Notes: generated by a model not told the origin, from the letters alone. A DNA stretch of 64,000 nucleotides from Candidatus Marinacidobacterium sp. (GCA_965204755.1 OZ242011.1:3200001-3264000); one strand, 5' to 3'; shown: positions 5,443-54,114, counted from the first letter of the stretch. Program-made: numbers and translations.

Positions 5443-7173
5443 TCAGCCGGCGGTGAGTCTCCAGAGCAGCAGCGCGGCGGCGGCGAGGGCGGCGAAGAGG
5501 ATCGTGCGGCCGATGGGGCGGTGGAAGGAGAAGGCTTCGGCCGTATCGGGACTCGGCGCTCCGTCCCCCCGGCCGCCGCCGCGCGAAGCGAGTCCGCGGG
5601 CGGCGCGGCCGGCGGCGGCGATGATCCGGCGGCGGAGCAACACGGCCTCCGGCTGGGCTTCGCCGAGGCGGCGGACGACGGCGGCGCCGAGCCGGCGGAG
5701 CGGGCGGCGGTAGAACCAGTCCGTGTCCAGCGTGAGTCCGGGCGAGGGTTTCAGCCGGGCGTAGAACAGCAGGAACGCGACGCCGGCGGCGGCGAGCAAC
5801 TGCGACGAGGAGACGATGTGGTCGAGGGTGAACGGGTGGTACTCGGCGGCCTCCGGCAACCGGCGGTACAGGAGGTCCGGCGCTGCGCCGTAGAGCAGGC
5901 AGAGCCCTCCGGCGAGGCCCATCGCCGCCAGCAGGTTCGACGGCAGCCGGGCCACGGCCAATCCCCGCCGCTCGCCGAAGAAGGCGAAGGCCGGGAGTTT
6001 CAGTCCCACGGAGAGGAAGGTGCCCACCGCCGCGAGGCCGAGCAGCAACTCCGCGGTGGGGAAGTGCGCCTCGCCGGCCGCGCTCACGATCATGGACTTG
6101 CTGATGAACCCGTTGAAGCCGGGCGCCCCGGAGATCGAGAGCGCCCCCACCAGGTACATCCCGACCGCGAAGGGCATCTTCCCGGCGACCGCGCCGAGCG
6201 CCGACAGTCGGCGCTTGCCGGTCGCCTCGATGGCGGCGCCGGCGCCCATGAACAGGAGCGCCTTGTAGAGGATGTGGGAGAACGCGTGGGCGGCCGCCCC
6301 GTTCAGCGCGAGCGCCGTCCCGATGCCGACCCCGGTCACCATGTACCCGACCTGGCTGACGATGTGGTAGCCGAGCAGCCGCCGGAGGTCGTTCTCGAGC
6401 AGGGCGAAGACCACCCCGTAGAGGGACATCGCCACCCCGAGCGGCACGAGCAGCGCCTCGCCGGGGAAGAGCCGCAGCAGCGCGTACACCGCCGTCTTCG
6501 TGGTGAACGCGGAGAGGAACACCGAGCCGGAAGTGCTCGCCTCCGGGTAGGAGTCGGTGAGCCAGGCGTGGAGCGGCGGGACGGCCGCGTTCAGCGCCAC
6601 CGCGGCCAGGATCAGCCAGGAGGGCGGCCCCGCCCCGGCGAGGACGGAGAGCGCCGCCCCGCCCCCGCCGCCGAGGTGGAACACGATCCCCAAGAAGAGC
6701 AGCGCGCCCCCGGCGGAGTGGACGAGCAGGTAGCGCATCCCGGCGGACCGGGCCGCGGGCGTCCCGCCCTCCCACACCACCACCAGCGAGGTCAGCGCCA
6801 TGGCCTCCCAGAACACGAAGAAGGTGATCCAGTCGCCGGCGAACACGGTGGCGATCGCCGAACCGGCGTAGGCCAGCGCGGCGGCGGTCTCCCGGGCGCG
6901 GAGCCGGTGCGCCCCGTAGAGGAGGCCGAGGAGGGCCACCACGGAGAACACCAGCCCGAACAGCAGGCTGAGCCGGTCGGCCCGGAACCAGAGCACTTCG
7001 AAACCGGCGACCTCCGCGGTGAGGCTGGCCGGGCCGAGCCGCAGTTGGGTGAGGAGCGCGGCGGCGGCGAAGGCGATCCCGATCGGCGGCGCCGGGAGGA
7101 GGCGCCGGAGCAGGAGCGTGGCCAGCGCTCCCGCGAAGAGCCAGAAGGCCGGGTGCGAAGCGATCCCGGTCAC
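5443..7173 (-). CDS. mrpD: Na+/H+ antiporter subunit D/A-like (third copy)
   Basis: FFVFWEAM, PLHAWLTDSYP, FTTKTAVY, HAFSHILYKALLF, NGFISK. Confidence 0.88.
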   Translation of the reverse strand: MTGIASHPAFWLFAGALATLLLRRLLPAPPIGIAFAAAALLTQLRLGPASLTAEVAGFEVLWFRADRLSLLFGLVFSVVALLGLLYGAHRLRARETAAALAYAGSAIATVFAGDWITFFVFWEAMALTSLVVVWEGGTPAARSAGMRYLLVHSAGGALLFLGIVFHLGGGGGAALSVLAGAGPPSWLILAAVALNAAVPPLHAWLTDSYPEASTSGSVFLSAFTTKTAVYALLRLFPGEALLVPLGVAMSLYGVVFALLENDLRRLLGYHIVSQVGYMVTGVGIGTALALNGAAAHAFSHILYKALLFMGAGAAIEATGKRRLSALGAVAGKMPFAVGMYLVGALSISGAPGFNGFISKSMIVSAAGEAHFPTAELLLGLAAVGTFLSVGLKLPAFAFFGERRGLAVARLPSNLLAAMGLAGGLCLLYGAAPDLLYRRLPEAAEYHPFTLDHIVSSSQLLAAAGVAFLLFYARLKPSPGLTLDTDWFYRRPLRRLGAAVVRRLGEAQPEAVLLRRRIIAAAGRAARGLASRGGGRGDGAPSPDTAEAFSFHRPIGRTILFAALAAAALLLWRLTAG

Positions 7174-43075: not shown

Positions 43076-44746
43076 TTACCCGGTGCCCTTCGGCAGGAGT
43101 TCCTCGGCGATCCGGTCCAGTTTCTCGCGGACTTCGGGGTGGATCTCCTCGGGCTTCATGACCGCGGCGAGTTGGTAGAGGTCGGTCTTCTTCGTCCGCC
43201 GCCCGGCGCGTGCGAGCATGGGGAGGAGGATGTCCTCGCTCGCCTTCACTCGTCTGAGCAGAGGGTGGTCGCCGAAGAAATCCGTACCGTCCGGCAGTTG
43301 CCGACGGAACTCGGCGTCGATCTCGTCAGGGCTCGTCCCCGTAGTTCTTTCGACGAATCGCCTGATGGCGTCGGGGTGGAGCAGGTAGTTCTCGATTTCG
43401 TACCGGCGCCACTGCAGCACGAAGAACCCCGCTTGGTCGGCGCCCTCGTCCTTCCCGTCGCGGTTGTTGCCGTCGAGCAGGCACAGGCCGGGCAACTCCG
43501 GGAACTCGGTCCGCAGCAGGGAGAAGTGGCGGCGCGCCTGCTTCGGCAGCCGCCCGCGAAGCCGGCGGATGTTGGGCAGCGCGAAGAACTTCCTCGCCGG
43601 GTGTTCGAGGATGCGGGCCCATTCCCGCAGGATGTCCTCGTCGGACCCGTCCTCGACATAGAGGATCGCGCCGCGCTCCCGAGCGCGCAGGAGGTCGGAG
43701 ACTTCGAGTTCCCGAAGGGCCTCCACGAGTCGCGTCCGGTCCTGCGATGTCGACAGCGAGCGGGGACCGGTTGAGAAGAAACCGAGGATCTCGGACGGGT
43801 CAGTGGCGTTGAGGACGACCTCGGAGTGCGTTGCCGCGATGAGTTGGCCGCCGCGCCGGGAGATGACTTCGCGGATTCGTTGGACGACCTGCTTCTGCCG
43901 CAAAACATGTTGATGGGCGTCCGGCTCGTCCATCAGGATGACGGAACCGCGCCGGGCATGGAGGAACGCGAAGAGCAGGATCACCTGCAGCGCGCCCGTT
44001 CCCGCGCTCGACAGATCGAGAGGCCTCCGGTGTCCGTGCGCCCGGTACTCACAGCGGATGTAGGCGTCTGCCGGCGCATAGAGCGGTTTTTCCAGTTGGA
44101 TGCCGAGGATTCCCTCGACTACCTCCCGGAGAGCCGGCCAGTCTTCGGTATTCGCGCTGATTTCCAGCAGAAGGTTCCGCAGGATCTCCCCGGTGCGTCC
44201 CTGTCCGACCAGCAGATCCTGCATCCCGCGGTCATGGCGCTGTTCTTCTCGCGCGATTCCCGCAAGCGCCGGGACCTGAACCACTACGAGAGCCCGTGCG
44301 CCCGGGGGCGGGAATGACTCGAACTGTTGGCTGCTCATGTTCTTGACTGCCAACGGGCGCGCATAGAGGAGTTCCGAACTGTGGTACTGGAACTCCATTC
44401 CGCAGGTCCAGGTGTCGCCTTCGGTCTCGGCCTCGACAACGATCTCGATGCGTCGGGGTGTCCTGGGATCGAAGCGAACGGTGCGCTGTTCCCAAAGCAA
44501 GTTCAACTCGCGGACGGGAACCGGAGTGAACTGGCTACGAGTGATGGACGCACCGGTGCGTGCCCTGGCGCGGCTCCGAATGCGGTGCGCCAGCCACCGA
44601 TCCAATCCGAACTTCCAGGTCGAAATCGCCTGGAGCAGCGTCGTCTTGCCGGAGTCGTTCGCGCCCGCGAGGACGACGGACTCGGAGAGGTCGAAGACCT
44701 CCTCTTCGAACCGCTTGAAGTGGCGGACGGTGACGCGGCGGATCAT
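43076..44746 (-). CDS. ABC ATPase fused to a C-terminal TOPRIM-like domain
   Basis: GANDSGKT, LMDEPDAH, ATHS, followed by LYVEDGSD...LLDGN...YEIENYL. Confidence 0.8.
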   Translation of the reverse strand: MIRRVTVRHFKRFEEEVFDLSESVVLAGANDSGKTTLLQAISTWKFGLDRWLAHRIRSRARARTGASITRSQFTPVPVRELNLLWEQRTVRFDPRTPRRIEIVVEAETEGDTWTCGMEFQYHSSELLYARPLAVKNMSSQQFESFPPPGARALVVVQVPALAGIAREEQRHDRGMQDLLVGQGRTGEILRNLLLEISANTEDWPALREVVEGILGIQLEKPLYAPADAYIRCEYRAHGHRRPLDLSSAGTGALQVILLFAFLHARRGSVILMDEPDAHQHVLRQKQVVQRIREVISRRGGQLIAATHSEVVLNATDPSEILGFFSTGPRSLSTSQDRTRLVEALRELEVSDLLRARERGAILYVEDGSDEDILREWARILEHPARKFFALPNIRRLRGRLPKQARRHFSLLRTEFPELPGLCLLDGNNRDGKDEGADQAGFFVLQWRRYEIENYLLHPDAIRRFVERTTGTSPDEIDAEFRRQLPDGTDFFGDHPLLRRVKASEDILLPMLARAGRRTKKTDLYQLAAVMKPEEIHPEVREKLDRIAEELLPKGTG

Positions 44747-46557: not shown

Positions 46558-48246
46558 TCAGGAAGGGGCCGATCCGGAGGAGGCGTGGGCCAGGGGCGGC
46601 GGAGGGTCGAGCAGGAACTTCCGCAGCCAGTCCGGCGGCCCGCAGTCCGGTCGCATCGCGACAGCGCCGACCCGATGCTCGCAGATGTAGGACTCGTCCG
46701 CCAGCCAGGTGTAGCCGTCGTGCTCCACTGCCGAGGTCGTGGGCGCCACGATCAGCGTCGCCGCCGGTCGGAGTCCCTTCCGGCCCCAGCGCAGGCCGTC
46801 TTGGTAGGCGTGCGCCGTGTCCCCGATCTCGTTCAGGAGGTTCTTCGCCGTGTATTTGGAGTCGAGGAGCACGAAATCCGTTACCTGCCCGTCCCGACTG
46901 CGCGTCAGGAGGAGATCGGGACGGCGTTCCCGCGAGACCGCCCAGCCGTCTTCCCCCGGAACGCCCCAAGTGTTGCGGAAGGTGGATTGGAGATGGAGGG
47001 TGAGTGTGACCCCTCCCGCGCTTCCGACGACTTGCCGCCGGTCGCTCCCTTCCTTCCCGCCCGGAGTCCAGTCCCACTCCGGAAGCCACTTGCGAAGTCG
47101 TTTCGCCAGCGCGACGAAGCACCATCGCTCGTAGATCTCCCAGGTCGGGGCGAGGGGAAGCAGGTCGGTGCGGTCGAGCCCGTACACCCCGGGCCGCAGC
47201 GCCGCCCAGGCGGTCTGCCAGAACCGGGAGTAGATCGGGTGCGCGGAGACCGCGTTCAGGCCGGCGGCGGTCACTTCCGCGCGGGTGACTTGCGAAAACG
47301 GCGGACGCCTCTCCGCGGCGCGGAAGGCGCGCTCCATCTCTCCGAGCAGGGCCACGCGCTCCGGCAGCCGGGCGGCGAGCGCGGTCCGGGTGTCCGATTC
47401 CTGCCGGTCGGCGAGTTCCCGGAGCCGCTTCGGGAGTTCGGCGGCGCGGCGAACCAGGGCGCGCAGCATCAACAGCGCGGCGCGGTTCGCGGGGGAATCC
47501 ACCGTGCGCTCCACCGCCGGCGTGTCGAAGATGGGCTCGGCGGAAATTCCGGGAGTCGACCGGCGGGCTGCGGCCTCCGCGCCGCGTTTCCGAGCGGCCG
47601 GAAGCGACTCGAGCGCGGCCCGGCTGCCGAGCGCCGCCCGCAGCGTGCGAAGGTCGGCGCGTCGGACTTCCCGGAGCGGGACGAAGCGGCGGCGGGGGCG
47701 GAGCACCGTCGCCGGGTCCCGACGCACCGCGGCGATCGCGGCGTCGAGTGGTTCCCGGCGGCTTCGCAGGCGCTCGAAGAGCACCAGCGGGTCGTCCGTC
47801 GGGCCGACGGCCCCCATCTTTCGCTTCGCCGGTTCCTCGCCGAGCAACAGGGCGGCGTCGAAGTCCAGGATCTCTTCGACCATGCGCTCGAAGACCTCGC
47901 CGCCGAGTTTCTCGGGCGCCGGCCCGACATCGAGTCGGTAGGTCGCGAGCGTCTGTCCGCCGGCGTCGACGAGCCGCGCCCGGACTTCGCCGGCGAAGAA
48001 GCCGGGCGTCCACTTCCAGCAGATGGCGCCGTCCGTGGTTTCTTCTGCTTCCAGGAGTTCGTCGTCCACGAAGAGGCGCAGGCCGCGATCCTTCGGCGCG
48101 GCGGCGATGAAGACGGTCTTCCGGAGTTCGGAGAACCCGCCGTTGACTTCGCGCGGATCGAGCGGCTTCCCGTTCTGGACGCGCAACGCGACCGCGCCGT
48201 CCGCCACGGCGTCACCGGGCGGCCGGAGACTCGGCATCTCGTTCAT
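46558..48246 (-). CDS. DUF2357 / McrC-like PD-(D/E)xK nuclease
   Basis: DSPANR, WEIYERWCF, RRPDLLL...LLDSKY; follows the McrB pair. Confidence 0.82.
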   Translation of the reverse strand: MNEMPSLRPPGDAVADGAVALRVQNGKPLDPREVNGGFSELRKTVFIAAAPKDRGLRLFVDDELLEAEETTDGAICWKWTPGFFAGEVRARLVDAGGQTLATYRLDVGPAPEKLGGEVFERMVEEILDFDAALLLGEEPAKRKMGAVGPTDDPLVLFERLRSRREPLDAAIAAVRRDPATVLRPRRRFVPLREVRRADLRTLRAALGSRAALESLPAARKRGAEAAARRSTPGISAEPIFDTPAVERTVDSPANRAALLMLRALVRRAAELPKRLRELADRQESDTRTALAARLPERVALLGEMERAFRAAERRPPFSQVTRAEVTAAGLNAVSAHPIYSRFWQTAWAALRPGVYGLDRTDLLPLAPTWEIYERWCFVALAKRLRKWLPEWDWTPGGKEGSDRRQVVGSAGGVTLTLHLQSTFRNTWGVPGEDGWAVSRERRPDLLLTRSRDGQVTDFVLLDSKYTAKNLLNEIGDTAHAYQDGLRWGRKGLRPAATLIVAPTTSAVEHDGYTWLADESYICEHRVGAVAMRPDCGPPDWLRKFLLDPPPPLAHASSGSAPS

Positions 48247-48269
48247 GGTGGAGCCTTCGAACCCGGTCG

Positions 48270-50363
48270 TCAGCGCCAGAAACTGCAACTGCCGGCGGCT
48301 TCCAGGTCCTCTTGCAGGCCTCGAACCTTGGTGGCGCACCTGTCGAGGCCGGCGTTCTCCAGCACGGCGACCGTGTCCTCCAAACACCTGCGGAATCGTG
48401 GCGTGTCGCTCCCCCGCAGTTTCGGGAGCACCTTGGCGTAGATCACCCGGTCGAGCGCGGCGTCGGCGCCGATCTCGATCCCGGAGTCGCGGGAGCGTCC
48501 CTCGAGGAAACCCACGACCTCCGCAATCACCCGCCAGCCGAAGTGCCGCCGCGCCGGCGAGAGTGTCTTCGCGAGGGCCGCCAGCAGGCCGCGAACCTTC
48601 CTTTTCTCGCCTTCGTCGAGTTCGCGCGACTCCCAGCCGGGCCACTCCTCCGGCTCGATGTCCCAGAACTCGAGGGTGAACGCGCGGTCGAGCACCTTGT
48701 CCGAGATGCCCATCGTCGTCTCGTCCATGTTCACCGTCCCGATGATGACCAGGTTCTTGGGGTAGGCCACGCCGGTCGGTACGCCCAACTCGTCCGGATC
48801 GCCGCGGTGGAGGGGGATCTCCCCGTCCGCGATCTCCATCGCGCTCAGGATCGGGGCGAAGTACTGCTCCGGGTGCGACAGGTTCATCTCGTCCAGGATC
48901 AGGACATGGGTCTCGTCGGGCTTCGCCGCGGCTTCGAGCAGGAAGTTCAGGAACTCGGTGCGCGCGTAGCCGCCGGTCAGCGGATTCACATACCCGAGCA
49001 GCGGGCCGGGGTCGTGCCAACCGGGATGGACGGCGATGACCTCGACGGGCCCTCCGGTGTCGCTCTCCGCCCCGGTGAGCGCCATGGCGTAGTGGAGCGC
49101 GATCCGGGTCTTCCCGGTCCCGGACAGCCCGGAGAGAACCGCGAAGTGCCGCTGTTCGTCCGCCCACAGCCCGAGATGCAGCGCCTCCACGAGCGACCGC
49201 TCGAACCGCAGATTCTCCGCGCCGGCTTGGCGGGCCATCGTTCCCCACAACTTGGCGAACTCGCTCAACCCCGAGAACAGGCCGTCGATCGGATACACGC
49301 GCTGCGGTCTGTCGAAGATTCCGGGGTCGGTGAAATCGCTGCGCGGAATCTCGGCAGGCGCCCACTTCACCGGCCGCGTATGCCGATGCTGTCCGTTCAC
49401 TTCGCCGTGCTCGTACTCCCCGTCGACGGTTCCCCACGCGATGCGCCTCCCGGCTTGCCGGCGGGGAAGGATCACGATGTCGCCCCCACGCATCTCCCGG
49501 GCGAACTTCCAGACCTGCGCGGCCCGGCCCGCCACTCCCTGCAACGACTGCTCCGGGTTCTGCTGGTGAACGACGGTGCGGTAACGCCGGAAGTCGCTGG
49601 TATCGGGGGCGGGCAGGTCGGCGAAGCCGATCATGGCCAAGCGGTTGGACAGCACGAAGTCTTCCGGGCCCTTCTCGTCGTGCTCGCCGGCCCGGACCAC
49701 CCAGATCGTCGGCCGGGTTTCTTCGGGCGGCTCGTGTCCGTTCCGCTCTCGCGACAGCAGACTGAGTTCGTTGACCAGGAGCATCCGCTCCGCCGTCCCT
49801 GCCAGTGCGTCCGCCGGCGCCCCGATCACTTCCCGGAGCCGGTCGAGCACGAGGCGGTGCGCCCCAATCGGATTGTTTCCGGGAACGGGACATCCGATGG
49901 CTCTCGAGAGTCCTACGATCCAATCCTTGTAGGCGAGGCCGGTGAAGTCCTCGGGGAAAAAGAGGGCCAGCGTGCGCAGGCTCTCGATCCACGGCTTTCT
50001 GGCGCCGCCCTTCGCGATCCGTTCCAGCGCATCGTCGTTCAGTCTTCGAAGGAACCGGACGCGCTCGTCCCGGCCCTCCGGCGGCGTCTGGACGGTCCGG
50101 CTCGCAAACCAGGCGCAGAAGTCCGCGTCGAGGAAACCGAAGTCCTTGACGAGGCCGCCCTCCCACAGCGTGCGGTCCGCCCAGACCTCACGCTGAAAGG
50201 CATCTGCCGCCCGCTCGCTTCGGTTCGCGTCGCGGATCCGCTGAAGCAACCGCGCCAGTCTCTCCACCCGTTCGGGGGCGACCCGCTCCCCGGCCCGCCG
50301 GCAGGCGGTCCTCAGCCCCTCGTCGGTCTTGAGTTCGAGGGGCGCCCGATCGGCCGGCGTCAT
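48270..50363 (-). CDS. McrB-like AAA+ GTPase (697 aa)
   Basis: GLSGTGKT, LILDEMNLS, GTVNMDETT, DKVLDRA. N-terminal WVVRAG...GDIVILP...HTRPVKW domain. ATG 50363 overlaps the upstream stop. Confidence 0.9.
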   Translation of the reverse strand: MTPADRAPLELKTDEGLRTACRRAGERVAPERVERLARLLQRIRDANRSERAADAFQREVWADRTLWEGGLVKDFGFLDADFCAWFASRTVQTPPEGRDERVRFLRRLNDDALERIAKGGARKPWIESLRTLALFFPEDFTGLAYKDWIVGLSRAIGCPVPGNNPIGAHRLVLDRLREVIGAPADALAGTAERMLLVNELSLLSRERNGHEPPEETRPTIWVVRAGEHDEKGPEDFVLSNRLAMIGFADLPAPDTSDFRRYRTVVHQQNPEQSLQGVAGRAAQVWKFAREMRGGDIVILPRRQAGRRIAWGTVDGEYEHGEVNGQHRHTRPVKWAPAEIPRSDFTDPGIFDRPQRVYPIDGLFSGLSEFAKLWGTMARQAGAENLRFERSLVEALHLGLWADEQRHFAVLSGLSGTGKTRIALHYAMALTGAESDTGGPVEVIAVHPGWHDPGPLLGYVNPLTGGYARTEFLNFLLEAAAKPDETHVLILDEMNLSHPEQYFAPILSAMEIADGEIPLHRGDPDELGVPTGVAYPKNLVIIGTVNMDETTMGISDKVLDRAFTLEFWDIEPEEWPGWESRELDEGEKRKVRGLLAALAKTLSPARRHFGWRVIAEVVGFLEGRSRDSGIEIGADAALDRVIYAKVLPKLRGSDTPRFRRCLEDTVAVLENAGLDRCATKVRGLQEDLEAAGSCSFWR

Positions 50364-51300
50364 CGCCAGAAACTGCAACTGCCGGTCGCGTCCAGGTCTT
50401 CCTTCAGACTCCGAACCTTCCGGGCGCACATCTCGAGTCCCGCCTTCTCCAGCGCGGCGGCCGTCTCGTCCAGGCACTTGCGGAACCGGGGCGTGTCGCT
50501 TCCCCGCAGTTTCGGCAGCACCTTGGCGTAGATCACCTGGTCGAGCGCCGCGTCAGGGCCGATCTCGATTCCGGAGTCGCGGGAGCGTCCCTCCAAGAAG
50601 CCCACGACTTCCGAGATCACCCGCCACCCGAAGTGCCGCCGCGCCGGCGAGAGAGTCCTCGTGAGGGCCGCCAGCAGGCCGCGAACCTTCGCCTTCTCGC
50701 TTCCGTCGAGTCCGCAGGACTCCCAGCCGGGCCACTCCTCGGGCTCGATGTCCCAGAACTCGAGAGTGAACGCGCGGTCGAGCACCTTGTCCGAGATCCC
50801 CATCGTGGTCTCGTCCATGTTGACCGTCCCGATGAGGACCAAGTTCTTCGGGTAGGGGACTCCCGTCGGGACGCCCAACTTTTCGGGGTCGCCGCGGTGG
50901 AGCGGGATCTCGCCGTCGGGGATCTCCATCGCGCTCAGGATCGGCGCGAAGTACTGCTCCGGGTGCGACAGGTTCATCTCGTCCAGGATCAGGACATGGG
51001 TCTCCTCCGGTTTGGCCGCGGCTTCGAGCAGGAAGTTCAGGAACTCGGTGCGCGCGTAGCCGCCGGTCAGCGGGTTCACATACCCGAGCAGCGGGCCGGG
51101 GTCGTGCCAACCGGGATGGACGGCGATGACCTCGACCGGCCCTCCGGTGTCGCTCTCCGCCCCGGTGAGCGCCATCGCGTAGCGCAACGCGATCTGGGTC
51201 TTCCCGGTCCCGGACAGCCCGGAGAGAACTGCGAAGTGCCGCTGCTCGTCCGCCCACAGCCCGAGATGCAGCGCCTCCACCAACGACCGCTCGAACCGCA
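48270..51300. repeat. ~940-bp direct repeat (48270-49210 and 50360-51300; offset 2090)
   Basis: Several blocks of more than 55 identical bp, e.g. 48858-48914 = 50948-51004. Confidence 0.92.
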
Positions 51301-52981
51301 GGTCGGCCTCGTCGGCTTGAAGACGAATCGCCTCCCACAAGTCGTCCATCGGGGGCAGCGGGTTGGCGCGCTCGGGCGTCCAGTGAATCTTCTTCCGCCA
51401 CCTGACGCCGCGCTCGGTGAGGGAGAGACTGCCGGCGTCATCTGCCTTGACGACCCTCACCTGACGGAGAAAGTTCACCAAATCTGAAGCGGCGCCTTCC
51501 TTCATGGCGACCTTCGACTGCAGGTGGGCCACCAAGTCCTTCTTGGGTTGCGGATTCGCCTCGAGCCGACTAAGGGCGTGGTCGGCGCCGCGGATGCGCG
51601 TCAGGAGGCACTCCATCAGGAGTTCGGCGTCGTTGTCTTCGCGCACCTTGCGACCGAGATCAGTGATCAGAATTCTCCCGTCCACGGTTTCCGTGCAGCG
51701 CAACACCGTCGCGGCTTCGATCTGGAAGTCGGTCGTCCCGACAGGCTGTCCCGGGAATTCCTCCGTCATCCGGGTGTGCAGGGCGTTCCGGTCGATTCCT
51801 TCGCCGACCAAACCCAGCATCCAGTACAACCGGCCGAAAGGATCGTCTCCTCCGAGGTGGAGGAGGATCCGGCGTTCCTGCAAAGGCAGCGGCTGCATCC
51901 CGTTGAGCACCGGCTCGATGTGTTCCGCGCGCTTGTGTAGGGAGAAGACCGTCGGGGGTTGGTCGAAGTACCTCCTATGGTCGCCGAACGCGGTCCGGGG
52001 AATGTCCGTGCGAACCCACTTCACCGGGCGCGTGTGGCGCGGCTGGCCCTCGACTTCTCGGTGCGCATATTCCCCTTCCACCGTGCCCCACGCGATGTGT
52101 CGTTCCCCTCTCTTTCGGGGAAGAACGACGATGTCTCCCTTTTGGATCTCCCACGCGAAGTTCCAGACCTGATCTGCGTTCGCCGTCACGGCGTTCTTCG
52201 GCCAGTCGGGATGCAGTGCCTGAACCACCTTGCGGTACGCCTTGTGGTCGTCGGTGTCGGGAGCGGGCAGGTTCTCGAAACCGAGCATGGCGATCCCGTT
52301 CGCCAGGACATATTCCTCATCCTGACCATCGCCGCCGGCGCGCACCCCCCAGAGGCGGGGCTCGGTGCACAGGTTCCAATACAGTTCATAACCGGTCAGC
52401 ATCCGCTCCGCCAGCCCATCGAAGCCTTCCTCCGGCGACCCGAGCACGCCTTCCAGGCGATCCAGAATGAGGCGATTCGCCTGGACCGGGTCATTGCCCG
52501 CGACATCGAGATCCAGCGTGTCGGCCAACCGTTTGAGTTTCCCCTTGTTGGCGAGATCCGTGAAGGACTCTGGAAAGAAGAGCGCGAGAGTTCGCAGGGC
52601 CTCCACATGCGGCTTGAAGTCGAGCGCCGACTGTGCGCGAAGCAGGATCTCTTCCAGGAAGCGCTTCAACGCCTTGGTTCGCTGGTGTTCGTCCTCTCGC
52701 TGAACCAGCACGGTCTCTCCGACGAACCACTGGCAGAAATCTTTCGAGAGGAGCGTGTCCAGTTGCGTTTCCGACATCAGGCCGCCGTCCCATACGAGGT
52801 TGCTGCTCCAGGCGCGCTTCTGGAACGCGCGATCTGCTCGGCGTGCCTCGGTGGCGCCGTCGATCTCCGCCAGGTACTCGGCGAGGTTCGCGATGTCGCC
52901 GCCGTCGATCCCGGAGATGGCGACCTCGCAGGCGGCCTTCAGGCCGTCGTCGGTCTTTGGGTCGTGCGGGACTCTGGGCAT
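50360..52981 (-). CDS. McrB-like AAA+ GTPase (873 aa)
   Basis: Same motor motifs. N-terminal WGVRAG...GDIVVLP...HTRPVKW domain plus an extra internal segment. Confidence 0.9.
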   Translation of the reverse strand: MPRVPHDPKTDDGLKAACEVAISGIDGGDIANLAEYLAEIDGATEARRADRAFQKRAWSSNLVWDGGLMSETQLDTLLSKDFCQWFVGETVLVQREDEHQRTKALKRFLEEILLRAQSALDFKPHVEALRTLALFFPESFTDLANKGKLKRLADTLDLDVAGNDPVQANRLILDRLEGVLGSPEEGFDGLAERMLTGYELYWNLCTEPRLWGVRAGGDGQDEEYVLANGIAMLGFENLPAPDTDDHKAYRKVVQALHPDWPKNAVTANADQVWNFAWEIQKGDIVVLPRKRGERHIAWGTVEGEYAHREVEGQPRHTRPVKWVRTDIPRTAFGDHRRYFDQPPTVFSLHKRAEHIEPVLNGMQPLPLQERRILLHLGGDDPFGRLYWMLGLVGEGIDRNALHTRMTEEFPGQPVGTTDFQIEAATVLRCTETVDGRILITDLGRKVREDNDAELLMECLLTRIRGADHALSRLEANPQPKKDLVAHLQSKVAMKEGAASDLVNFLRQVRVVKADDAGSLSLTERGVRWRKKIHWTPERANPLPPMDDLWEAIRLQADEADLRFERSLVEALHLGLWADEQRHFAVLSGLSGTGKTQIALRYAMALTGAESDTGGPVEVIAVHPGWHDPGPLLGYVNPLTGGYARTEFLNFLLEAAAKPEETHVLILDEMNLSHPEQYFAPILSAMEIPDGEIPLHRGDPEKLGVPTGVPYPKNLVLIGTVNMDETTMGISDKVLDRAFTLEFWDIEPEEWPGWESCGLDGSEKAKVRGLLAALTRTLSPARRHFGWRVISEVVGFLEGRSRDSGIEIGPDAALDQVIYAKVLPKLRGSDTPRFRKCLDETAAALEKAGLEMCARKVRSLKEDLDATGSCSFWR

Positions 52982-53167
52982 GGTGTTTCAGTCGTCAGGA
53001 AGGGCGAGCGGACAGGGCGTCGGCCGGGCGTCGCAGCGGGAAAGCGTCGGGCCCAGCCTCCGGTGATCGGGAATCGCGGAGAATACGCGACCGGTAGGCC
53101 GGTTCGACCTCCGGCGACCGGAGCAATGGGATCGAGGTCAACTCGCCCTTCGTGGCCGGGCGCCCAC

Positions 53168-53982
53168 TCACGCTTGCGCGTTCCACGGGGGATCGAGATC
53201 GCGGATGAGTCGGGCTTCGAGCGGGCGGGGCTCGGCGGTCTCGTGGATCCAGAGTTCGATGGCCCGGCCGGCGCGAGATTCGAGGAGGAACGCGTGGTTG
53301 ACCTTGCAGTTCGTGGACTGGCCGCCCTCGAAGCAGTTCCGGGGCGAGATGCGGCCGTAGCCCATGGGGCCCCACCGCTGCCGGATGTCCACGGAGATGC
53401 CCACATAGACCACCGCGCCGGCGACGGTGACCGCGTAGACGCCCGGCGCCGACGGCAGCCCCGGCACCGTGAATTCGCAGAACGGGCCCGCGCCGTGGGC
53501 GTTGAGGCGGAGCCGCCGATGTTGGCGTAGCGTCCCTGCGGCATCTCTTCCCGGATCGCGCCGCCGGGCTCCCGAACCGGCTCGATGGCGCCCGCCCAGC
53601 CGAAAGCGAGGCCATCCAGCGACAGCGTGTCGCCGCTCTCAGGTGTCGCGGGGAAGTGCTGCGGGTCACTCCGCGGCGGGCGCGAAGTCGGCGGGCTGGG
53701 GCGGGGCGCCCGGCGTGGGGCCGGGGGCGCCGCAGAGCCGACTCGGTGGAACTCCACGGTCTCGCCGTGGTGATCCACATTGGCCGTTTCCCAGCCGGCA
53801 TCGATCCAAGCCTTGGCCTGGCTGTGGCTCCGGTCGTTGTTGCTCCACCACGCGGGGTACATCCGCGCAGAGGGGGGCAGTTCTTTGCCGAGTACGGCTT
53901 CGATCTCGGAAAAAGTCGCGCGCCACGGGCTCGTGTCCCGCGCTGCGAGGAAGTCACCGAGAGGCTGGTACTTGCTGGCCAT
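53168..53982 (-). pseudogene. DUF7662 + GIY-YIG nuclease fusion with a 1-bp frameshift near 53512
   Basis: MASKYQPL...FSEIEAVLG..LPPSA..YPAWWSN, then PQGRYANIGG | LRLNAHGAGPFCEF..PGVYAVTVAGAVVYVG continues in a different frame. Confidence 0.7.
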
Positions 53983-54114
53983 GTGTCCGCGTCTCCATTC
54001 GGGTTGGGGCAAGGCCCGGAGGCGGCGTTCGACGGCCGACCGACCGGGGGAGCCCCACCATAGACGAATGACCGGACAGAATCCGTCACCCCATTCCCGG
54101 GGCGACGGCCGGGG

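Follow-up and report, generated by a model that had tools for sequence, protein, structure and literature searches.

McrBC is the textbook modification-dependent restriction enzyme and is usually treated as a system of one reader, one motor and one nuclease. Within the McrB GTPases (guanosine triphosphatases) there is a large NxD branch, in which the motif N-x-D is usually followed by E or D and which, in the main text of its description, has no characterised member (PMC11090510). Pairs of McrB homologs within one genome that differ mainly in their N-terminal DNA-binding region have also been reported and were read as shifts in specificity (Fukuda et al. 2008, PMC2614495). The locus described here lies in a 64,000-nucleotide (nt) window of the genome of Candidatus Marinacidobacterium sp. 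(GCA_965204755.1 OZ242011.1:3200001-3264000). The window is the whole stretch analysed and all positions are counted within it; G000 denotes its genome, and G001 another species of the same genus. The locus consists of two McrB-like genes, McrB1 and McrB2, followed by one gene for a McrC-like nuclease, all arranged head to tail on the minus strand. Each McrB gene encodes an N-terminal head, made up of a helical domain and an EVE/YTH-like domain, joined to a C-terminal motor. The ATG of McrB2 overlaps the stop codon of McrB1 as ATGA, and 24 nt separate the McrB2 stop from the start of the McrC-like gene. The original prediction for this stretch, two coupled McrB-like genes with one PD-(D/E)xK partner, agrees with this overlap and with the DUF2357 match and nuclease residues found in the third gene. 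We consider it probable that this is a Type IV McrBC-type locus in which one McrC is served by two translationally coupled McrB paralogs with different heads, and that this shared chassis evolves through conversion of the motors and exchange of the heads. What the heads read, the use of GTP, co-assembly of the two proteins and a function in defence are proposed from sequence.

The clearest feature of the pair is an ungapped direct repeat, 48270-49211 against 50360-51301, which has an offset of 2090 nt and is 90.6% identical over 942 nt. It covers the last 313 codons of each gene, with 89 differences in 939 coding nt and a longest identical run of 62 nt; a repeat finder alone returned just a 300-nt, 86% piece of it. 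The ends of the repeat are abrupt, as identity is 0.30-0.33 in the 30-nt windows just beyond both edges, and at the mosaic boundary it takes 60 nt or less to drop from 0.8-1.0 to about 0.3. At the protein level, windows of 30 codons give identities of 0.23-0.67 across the heads and 0.60-1.00 across the final 313 residues, and the averages per domain are 40% for the helical domain, 50% for the EVE-like domain, 27% for a 15-residue linker and 90.1% for the motor. The heads are about 45% identical overall and can be aligned end to end except for about 180 extra residues in McrB1 (residues about 366-545) that are absent in McrB2. The step in identity at the head-motor junction is genuine and much too sharp to arise by chance. 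The homologous but strongly diverged N-termini and the extra segment of about 175 amino acids (aa) in the first gene had both been anticipated correctly, and a sliding-window comparison finds that identity is not uniform along the genes. The claim that the last ~310 codons are nearly identical at the DNA level holds for the bounded repeat itself and overstates its likeness, since DNA and protein both agree at only nine positions in ten. Between the two G000 genes, synonymous divergence (dS) amounts to 0.27 for the motor and 1.14 for the head, so the likeness of the motors reflects recent shared DNA ancestry and not only protein constraint.

Comparison with the sister species shows how the two parts of the genes differ in history. 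G001 carries the same arrangement, a McrB pair with a single McrC, at the corresponding chromosomal site, and the flanks common to both genomes include Ddl (74% identical), DUF547 (82%) and an AAA_15 ATPase (62-65%). The tblastx synteny output was full of high-GC noise, and only long matches at 74-82% identity were used. The motors are 90.1% identical within G000 and 90.7% within G001, and 81.2-83.1% identical between the genomes; the heads are 41-47% identical in all six pairs of the four proteins. Motor dS is 0.37 within G001 and 0.49-0.63 between G000 and G001. Among informative sites in the motor quartet, 71 nt sites follow the concerted grouping, 5 the grouping by position and 4 the cross grouping, and the corresponding amino acid counts are 20, 0 and 0. 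Concerted evolution of the motors by gene conversion is supported by these comparisons. The original prediction had named gene conversion as the cause, and that process, or recombination bounded at the head-motor junction, is consistent with dS, the quartets, synteny, the excess of identity within contigs and the one rejecting tree test described below.

The wider relatives extend this pattern to the heads. Species representatives contain 13 related loci, 12 of which have a single McrB (two motors occur only in G001); their heads vary and one has the reversed domain order. An order-wide search of 55 genomes returned 10 with a match, with the tandem present only in G000 and G001 and a second, partial copy elsewhere in G004. 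A motor search of metagenome contigs found no relative, and a search of 5.8 billion proteins found 67 (P0001-P0067) with motors at least 71% identical to that of McrB2. The heads of these proteins fall into 18 types at 60% identity. Grouping places 32 of the 67 on 15 shared contigs, as 13 pairs and 2 threes with varied head combinations, where co-residence on the 13 contigs other than those of G000 and G001 was inferred from equal longest-contig sizes. Head type 13 is found with types 7, 8, 11 or 1, and type 12 with 15, 7, 2 or 8. The motor tree shows 32 changes of head type, where 17 would be the minimum, and in several cases motors that are sisters on it bear different heads, among them pairs from one contig that are 97.4% alike. 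Forcing the nine motors with head type 13 into one clade costs 200 log-likelihood units and is rejected by the approximately unbiased (AU) test (p = 0.0005; the groups were defined before the tree and picked for testing after it was seen). In the wider clade, 14 same-contig pairs average 91.5% motor identity (shuffle P = 0.0004), compared with 89.9% for 36 same-head pairs and 89.1% for 250 different-head pairs on different contigs. Heads have therefore also been exchanged between genomes, and the arrangement is better described as a shared chassis with swappable heads than as motor homogenisation alone.

Detailed models of the heads provide insight into what these modules may recognize. AlphaFold2 models built from 60- and 61-row alignments have a mean predicted local distance difference test (pLDDT) score of 91.6 for McrB1 and 88.2 for McrB2, and fold matches were scored by VIA-align Z. 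The EVE-like domain of McrB1 matches VcaM4I (Z 10.5, root-mean-square deviation 3.0, 120 aligned), PH1033 (Z 10.0) and YTHDC2 (Z 9.7). That of McrB2 matches VcaM4I (Z 8.7), PH1033 (Z 8.2), YTHDC2 (Z 7.2), THYN1 with 5-methylcytosine DNA (Z 6.0) and the archaeal McrB N-terminal domains of S. marinus and T. gammatolerans (Z 5.8 and 4.8). The EVE/YTH/PUA-like matches span the whole domain in both heads, Foldseek gives weak E-values (at least 0.03) at a probability of about 1, and PADLOC PDC-S02 matches McrB1 residues about 210-340 (E 5e-27); no Pfam EVE or YTH match was found for the domain at E <= 0.01. On the modelled folds, both heads hold an EVE/YTH-like predicted reader of modified bases. 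The extra segment of McrB1 resembles the FokI recognition domain (Z 10.7, 170 aligned), N.BspD6I (Z 10.6) and BpuJI (Z 9.9), so the earlier guess of EVE/PUA-like or winged-helix readers is matched by EVE-like folds in both heads and a winged-helix pair in McrB1. The best match of the McrB2 helical domain is the Tm1821 8-oxoguanine glycosylase (Z 7.8, 156 aligned), with EndoIII, MagIII, OGG1, MutY and AlkA at Z 3.4-4.8; this HhH-GPD glycosylase likeness is a lead only, because the Z values are under the level that the tool advises for helical folds. A protein atlas places the helical domain in unnamed clusters only at 0.93-0.95, with DUF8425 and ScoMcrA_N below 0.9 as leads only. The nearly invariant columns of the heads lie mostly in this helical domain.

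The EVE-like domain is widespread. A scan of 1.84 billion representatives gave 1300 matches at E <= 0.001, and a sample of 45 contained 13 with Mrr_cat, 8 with AAA_5, 3 with EVE, 3 with CBS, 2 with Mrr_N and 1 with MrcB_N, together with 3 that have only other families and 15 without a Pfam family. By these sequence associations the domain, which recurs ahead of restriction modules, is a putative mobile reader module of restriction-type proteins. The winged-helix insert appears to be the most variable part of the locus among strains. In window positions 51428-51922, runs X3 and X9 cover the flanks of McrB1 and the insert falls below 90% likeness; in run X3 it is replaced by a stretch of similar length. 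In G001, the winged-helix pair is encoded upstream of the twin McrB genes (L016 9013-10810) and not inside McrB. One of its two copies there follows a Swt1-like HEPN domain (Pfam E 1e-33) in a single open frame; the other forms a gene of 191 aa. A reversed order of head domains, with the EVE-like domain before the helical one, is seen in L024/L017 of G007 (5819-6877) and in proteins P0060-P0067, and the head modules have therefore been permuted as well as swapped.

Both motors retain the elements expected of McrB-type enzymes. Walker A (GLSGTGKT), Walker B (LILDEMN) and VNMDE occur in both genes, as had been predicted for Walker A, Walker B and NMDE. The motors match the solved McrB chains in PDB 6hz4/6ut6/7vsr at E 4e-10 to 6e-10 over ~165-190 residues, and both McrB genes match PADLOC PDC-M26A (E 4e-34 and 6e-35). 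In the HMMER alignment the E. coli NTAD aligns with NMDE, with the E. coli D opposite the E. The canonical NxxD signature is absent because the motif reads N-M-D-E, and this would fit the NxD-plus-E variant of Bell et al. 2024 (PMC11090510). From these matches, the assignment of both genes to McrB-type AAA+ motors is supported, and nucleotide hydrolysis and ring formation are predicted. The McrC-like gene scores 27.6 bits against Pfam DUF2357, above the cutoff of 23.3; it matches no PADLOC model and has no real sequence match to solved McrC chains. Of 13 related McrC genes aligned with it, 12 conserve its E, PD and D-S-K residues, and the exception, L035, is cut short. Among related single-McrB loci, McrC appears shortened or in two tblastn pieces in L035, L031 and L027, which may be decayed systems.

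Table. Positions of the genes, domains and motifs of the twin McrB locus in the window.
Feature	Position	Strand	Extent and basis
McrB1	52981..50360	minus	873 aa; helical + EVE/YTH-like + two winged helices + McrB-type AAA+ motor; open reading frame (ORF) and McrB match
McrB1 helical domain	52367..52981	minus	aa 1-205; all-helical in model
McrB1 EVE/YTH-like (PUA-like) domain	51902..52366	minus	aa 206-360; VIA-align and PADLOC PDC-S02
McrB1-only tandem winged-helix insert	51347..51886	minus	aa ~366-545; VIA-align
McrB1 motor, repeat copy 1	50363..51301	minus	aa 561-873; Walker A 51197-51220, Walker B 50972-50992, VNMDE 50810-50824
McrB2	50363..48270	minus	697 aa; helical + EVE/YTH-like + motor; ORF and McrB match
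McrB2 helical domain	49728..50363	minus	aa 1-212; VIA-align, modest Z
McrB2 EVE/YTH-like domain	49266..49712	minus	aa 218-366; VIA-align
McrB2 motor, repeat copy 2	48273..49211	minus	aa 385-697; Walker A 49107-49130, Walker B 48882-48902, VNMDE 48720-48734
McrC-like nuclease	48246..46558	minus	562 aa; DUF2357 aa 151-323 and PD-(D/E)xK
PD-(D/E)xK motifs of McrC-like nuclease	E 47122-47142; PD 46906-46926; D-S-K 46852-46869	minus	motif location

In the mechanism that we propose, the heads would bind DNA, each recruiting its motor to a different DNA feature. The motor ring, whether mixed or separate, would then engage the single McrC, with nucleotide hydrolysis driving cleavage as in established McrBC. 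In the evolution of the locus, recombination stops sharply where head meets motor. Motors that share a genome repeatedly overwrite each other by gene conversion, and heads are exchanged between genomes to give arrays of one to three McrB genes in varied combinations. Selection for compatible motors is not required, because conversion that halts where the homology of the direct repeat ends would give the same pattern. The two heads likely give two target ranges, given the diversity of the heads and the additional FokI-like module. It is conceivable, and we hold this part only tentatively, that McrB rings are mixed and contain two or three kinds of head. Such rings could cleave in response to combinations of marks or cover several marks, and conversion would keep captured heads compatible with the ring and with McrC.

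Several observations weigh against the main interpretation. The longest run of identical third codon positions (20 codons) is not significant (P = 0.63), and the last homogenisation in G000 was not recent, as the motors differ at 89 nt with a dS of 0.27. The motors of close orthologs are 96.5% and 98.1% alike, compared with 90.1% for the paralogs. For head type 16, the type of McrB2 in the window, a single motor clade is not rejected (AU p = 0.34). Taken together, the type 16 result, the closer orthologs and the lack of a long tract indicate that conversion in the lineage of the window was episodic and not recent. The amino acid quartet sites of the heads are modest, with 18 by position, 7 concerted and 5 cross. 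On this modest signal, the first copies would be orthologous across the two genomes and the second copies likewise, and the duplication would be older than the species split. Between G000 and G001 the heads of the first copies are just 47% identical, with McrC at 63% and the motor at 82%, and part of the pattern could stem from head replacement instead of motor conversion. The DNA-checked tandems are those of G000 and G001 only. The motors match the NCBIfam McrB model at E 4e-8, yet their 32.5 bits fall far short of the cutoff of 637 for equivalogs, so that they do not count as equivalogs of E. coli McrB, and Pfam AAA_5 and AAA_22 also score under their cutoffs. Finally, the EVE-like cores share many conserved residues, so that the two heads may not differ in the base that they read. 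A separate contrast, which was unplanned and made post hoc, is that third-position differences number 11 in the first 118 codons of the motor and 47 in the other 195.

Many of these points would also be met by a separate tandem duplication in each lineage followed by replacement or fast divergence of the heads, with no later conversion and with motors that are alike only because the duplication is young. One moderately old event would fit the motor dS of 0.27-0.37, no long identical tract is significant, the type 16 motors are not rejected as one clade, and heads are clearly exchanged among genomes. We consider this history unlikely, because the tandem occupies the same chromosomal site in both members of the genus and the head residues group by position (18 vs 7 and 5). 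It also sits poorly with motors that are 97.4% alike under different head types on several contigs when motors of the same type elsewhere are ~92% alike, with the within-contig excess of motor identity (P = 0.0004) and with the AU rejection of a single clade for the type 13 motors.

The division of labour between the two proteins could also differ from that proposed. In E. coli, a short form of McrB is described as a modulator of ring assembly or of the availability of McrC. By analogy, one paralog here might supply specificity while the other acts as such a modulator, or both might read the same base and differ in sequence context. The many residues kept in common by the EVE-like cores would suit either version, and some array members of relatives with head type 1 (570 aa), which have the helical domain and no EVE-like domain, are compatible with this alternative as well. 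We regard it as quite unlikely, since both heads are complete and confidently folded in the models, both motors keep all nucleoside triphosphatase motifs and McrB1 has an extra predicted DNA-binding module. The recombination of highly diverse head types in arrays fits, in addition, selection for different targets.

The tandem itself is confirmed by contigs from several sequencing runs. Logan contigs from four runs in four studies pass from the McrB2 head through position 50360 into the end of the McrB1 motor (X1 49161-50795 with 0 differences, X7 49125-50587, X9 49161-50757 and X3 49747-50542); run X1 may be the source sample. No run listed as holding the sequence was an RNA run. In short-read contigs the middles of the motors are split into short unitigs, as expected of a repeat. 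An assembly artefact that stacks two strain alleles of a single McrB gene, a danger raised in the original prediction, might be suspected from a single-contig metagenome-assembled genome of 89% completeness with fragmented motor middles, and has next to no chance of being correct given the four bridged junctions, the exact ATGA start/stop overlap, the same arrangement in G001 and the recurrence of paired sizes of ~700 and ~880 aa on many other contigs. The same early account suggested that the 2090-nt repeat could delete or amplify a reader. Relatives with one, two and three copies fit this suggestion; a joint that skips 2090 nt, as in a collapsed allele, was not seen in the contigs, which drop rare variants.

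The setting of the locus offers some further observations. The genome is a single contig of 3.98 megabases, and the closest relatives with a name are acidobacterial metagenome genomes in the class Vicinamibacteria. G+C content is 0.67-0.68 over 48000-54000 and 0.72-0.74 on either side, which fits an acquired island among housekeeping genes. Its neighbours are a rhodanese and DUF547 downstream and a D-Ala-D-Ala ligase upstream. The gene directly upstream of McrB1 (53168-53982, minus strand) opens with a DUF7662 domain at 53982..53701 (Pfam E 2e-16). Near 53530 the frame with high third-position G+C changes to that of a 99-aa ORF (53467..53168), which has no Pfam match at E <= 0.01, and the gene is either frameshifted or carries a one-base assembly error. 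Three genes downstream of McrC, at 43076-44746 on the minus strand, lies a 556-aa AAA_15/AAA_21 ATPase that is syntenic in G001 and matches the PADLOC models AriA, NsnB, PtuA and GajA (best E 4e-20); it may be a second defence gene.

Taken with its relatives, the locus is a natural example of a single motor-nuclease chassis fitted with two or three interchangeable heads, in which the motors stay alike through recombination. Should the heads read different marks, this would widen Type IV coverage of phages that change their DNA modification without duplication of the nuclease. Mixed rings, if they form, would give Type IV restriction a set of plug-in readers whose evolution proceeds through the shuffling of heads. 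With at least 18 natural variants of the head joined to near-identical motors, the group is well suited to mapping recognition by EVE-like readers, and the locus would open the uncharacterised NxD form of the McrB motor to experiment through a first example. It is also a case of bacterial concerted evolution with a sharply bounded tract.

Compared with described systems, the locus resembles E. coli McrBC in that its motors match solved McrB, its partner combines DUF2357 with nuclease motifs and an N-terminal reader is fused to the motor. It differs in having two McrB genes with different heads for each McrC, in heads that are helical plus EVE/YTH-like with a winged-helix pair in one, and in an NMDE signature in place of NTAD, with an NCBIfam equivalog score far under the cutoff. 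The NxD branch, as set out in the main text of PMC11090510, shares the NxD-E motif with the window motors and is likened to them by that motif alone; unlike members of that branch, the locus has no coiled coils, HEPN or RNA-binding additions and its McrC motifs are intact. That main text, supplements aside, makes no mention of a tandem, second or paralogous McrB. The pairs in the passages of PMC2614495 considered here are two mcrBC homologs, sometimes on different replicons, and those passages do not mention a tandem sharing one McrC, concerted evolution of motors or combinatorial head arrays. More broadly, no account of McrB genes in tandem that have homogenised motors and a single McrC between them was found in full-text literature searches, in passages of PMC11090510, PMC12707154 and PMC2614495 or in the outline and abstract of the LlaI preprint.

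The reader fold is shared with EVE-HNH and YTH/EVE-fused Type IV enzymes, such as VcaM4I, and with archaeal McrB N-terminal domains. Unlike the VcaM4I type, a helical domain here precedes the reader and the effector is the McrB motor with McrC, not a fused HNH nuclease. A parallel in evolutionary logic is the shuffling of Type I hsdS specificity, where one enzymatic chassis is served by several recombining specificity modules and conserved stretches act as the substrate for recombination. The McrB locus likewise has one chassis with exchangeable modules. It differs in that no invertase or inverted repeats are seen, and the units that recombine here are whole motor-bearing genes in direct orientation.

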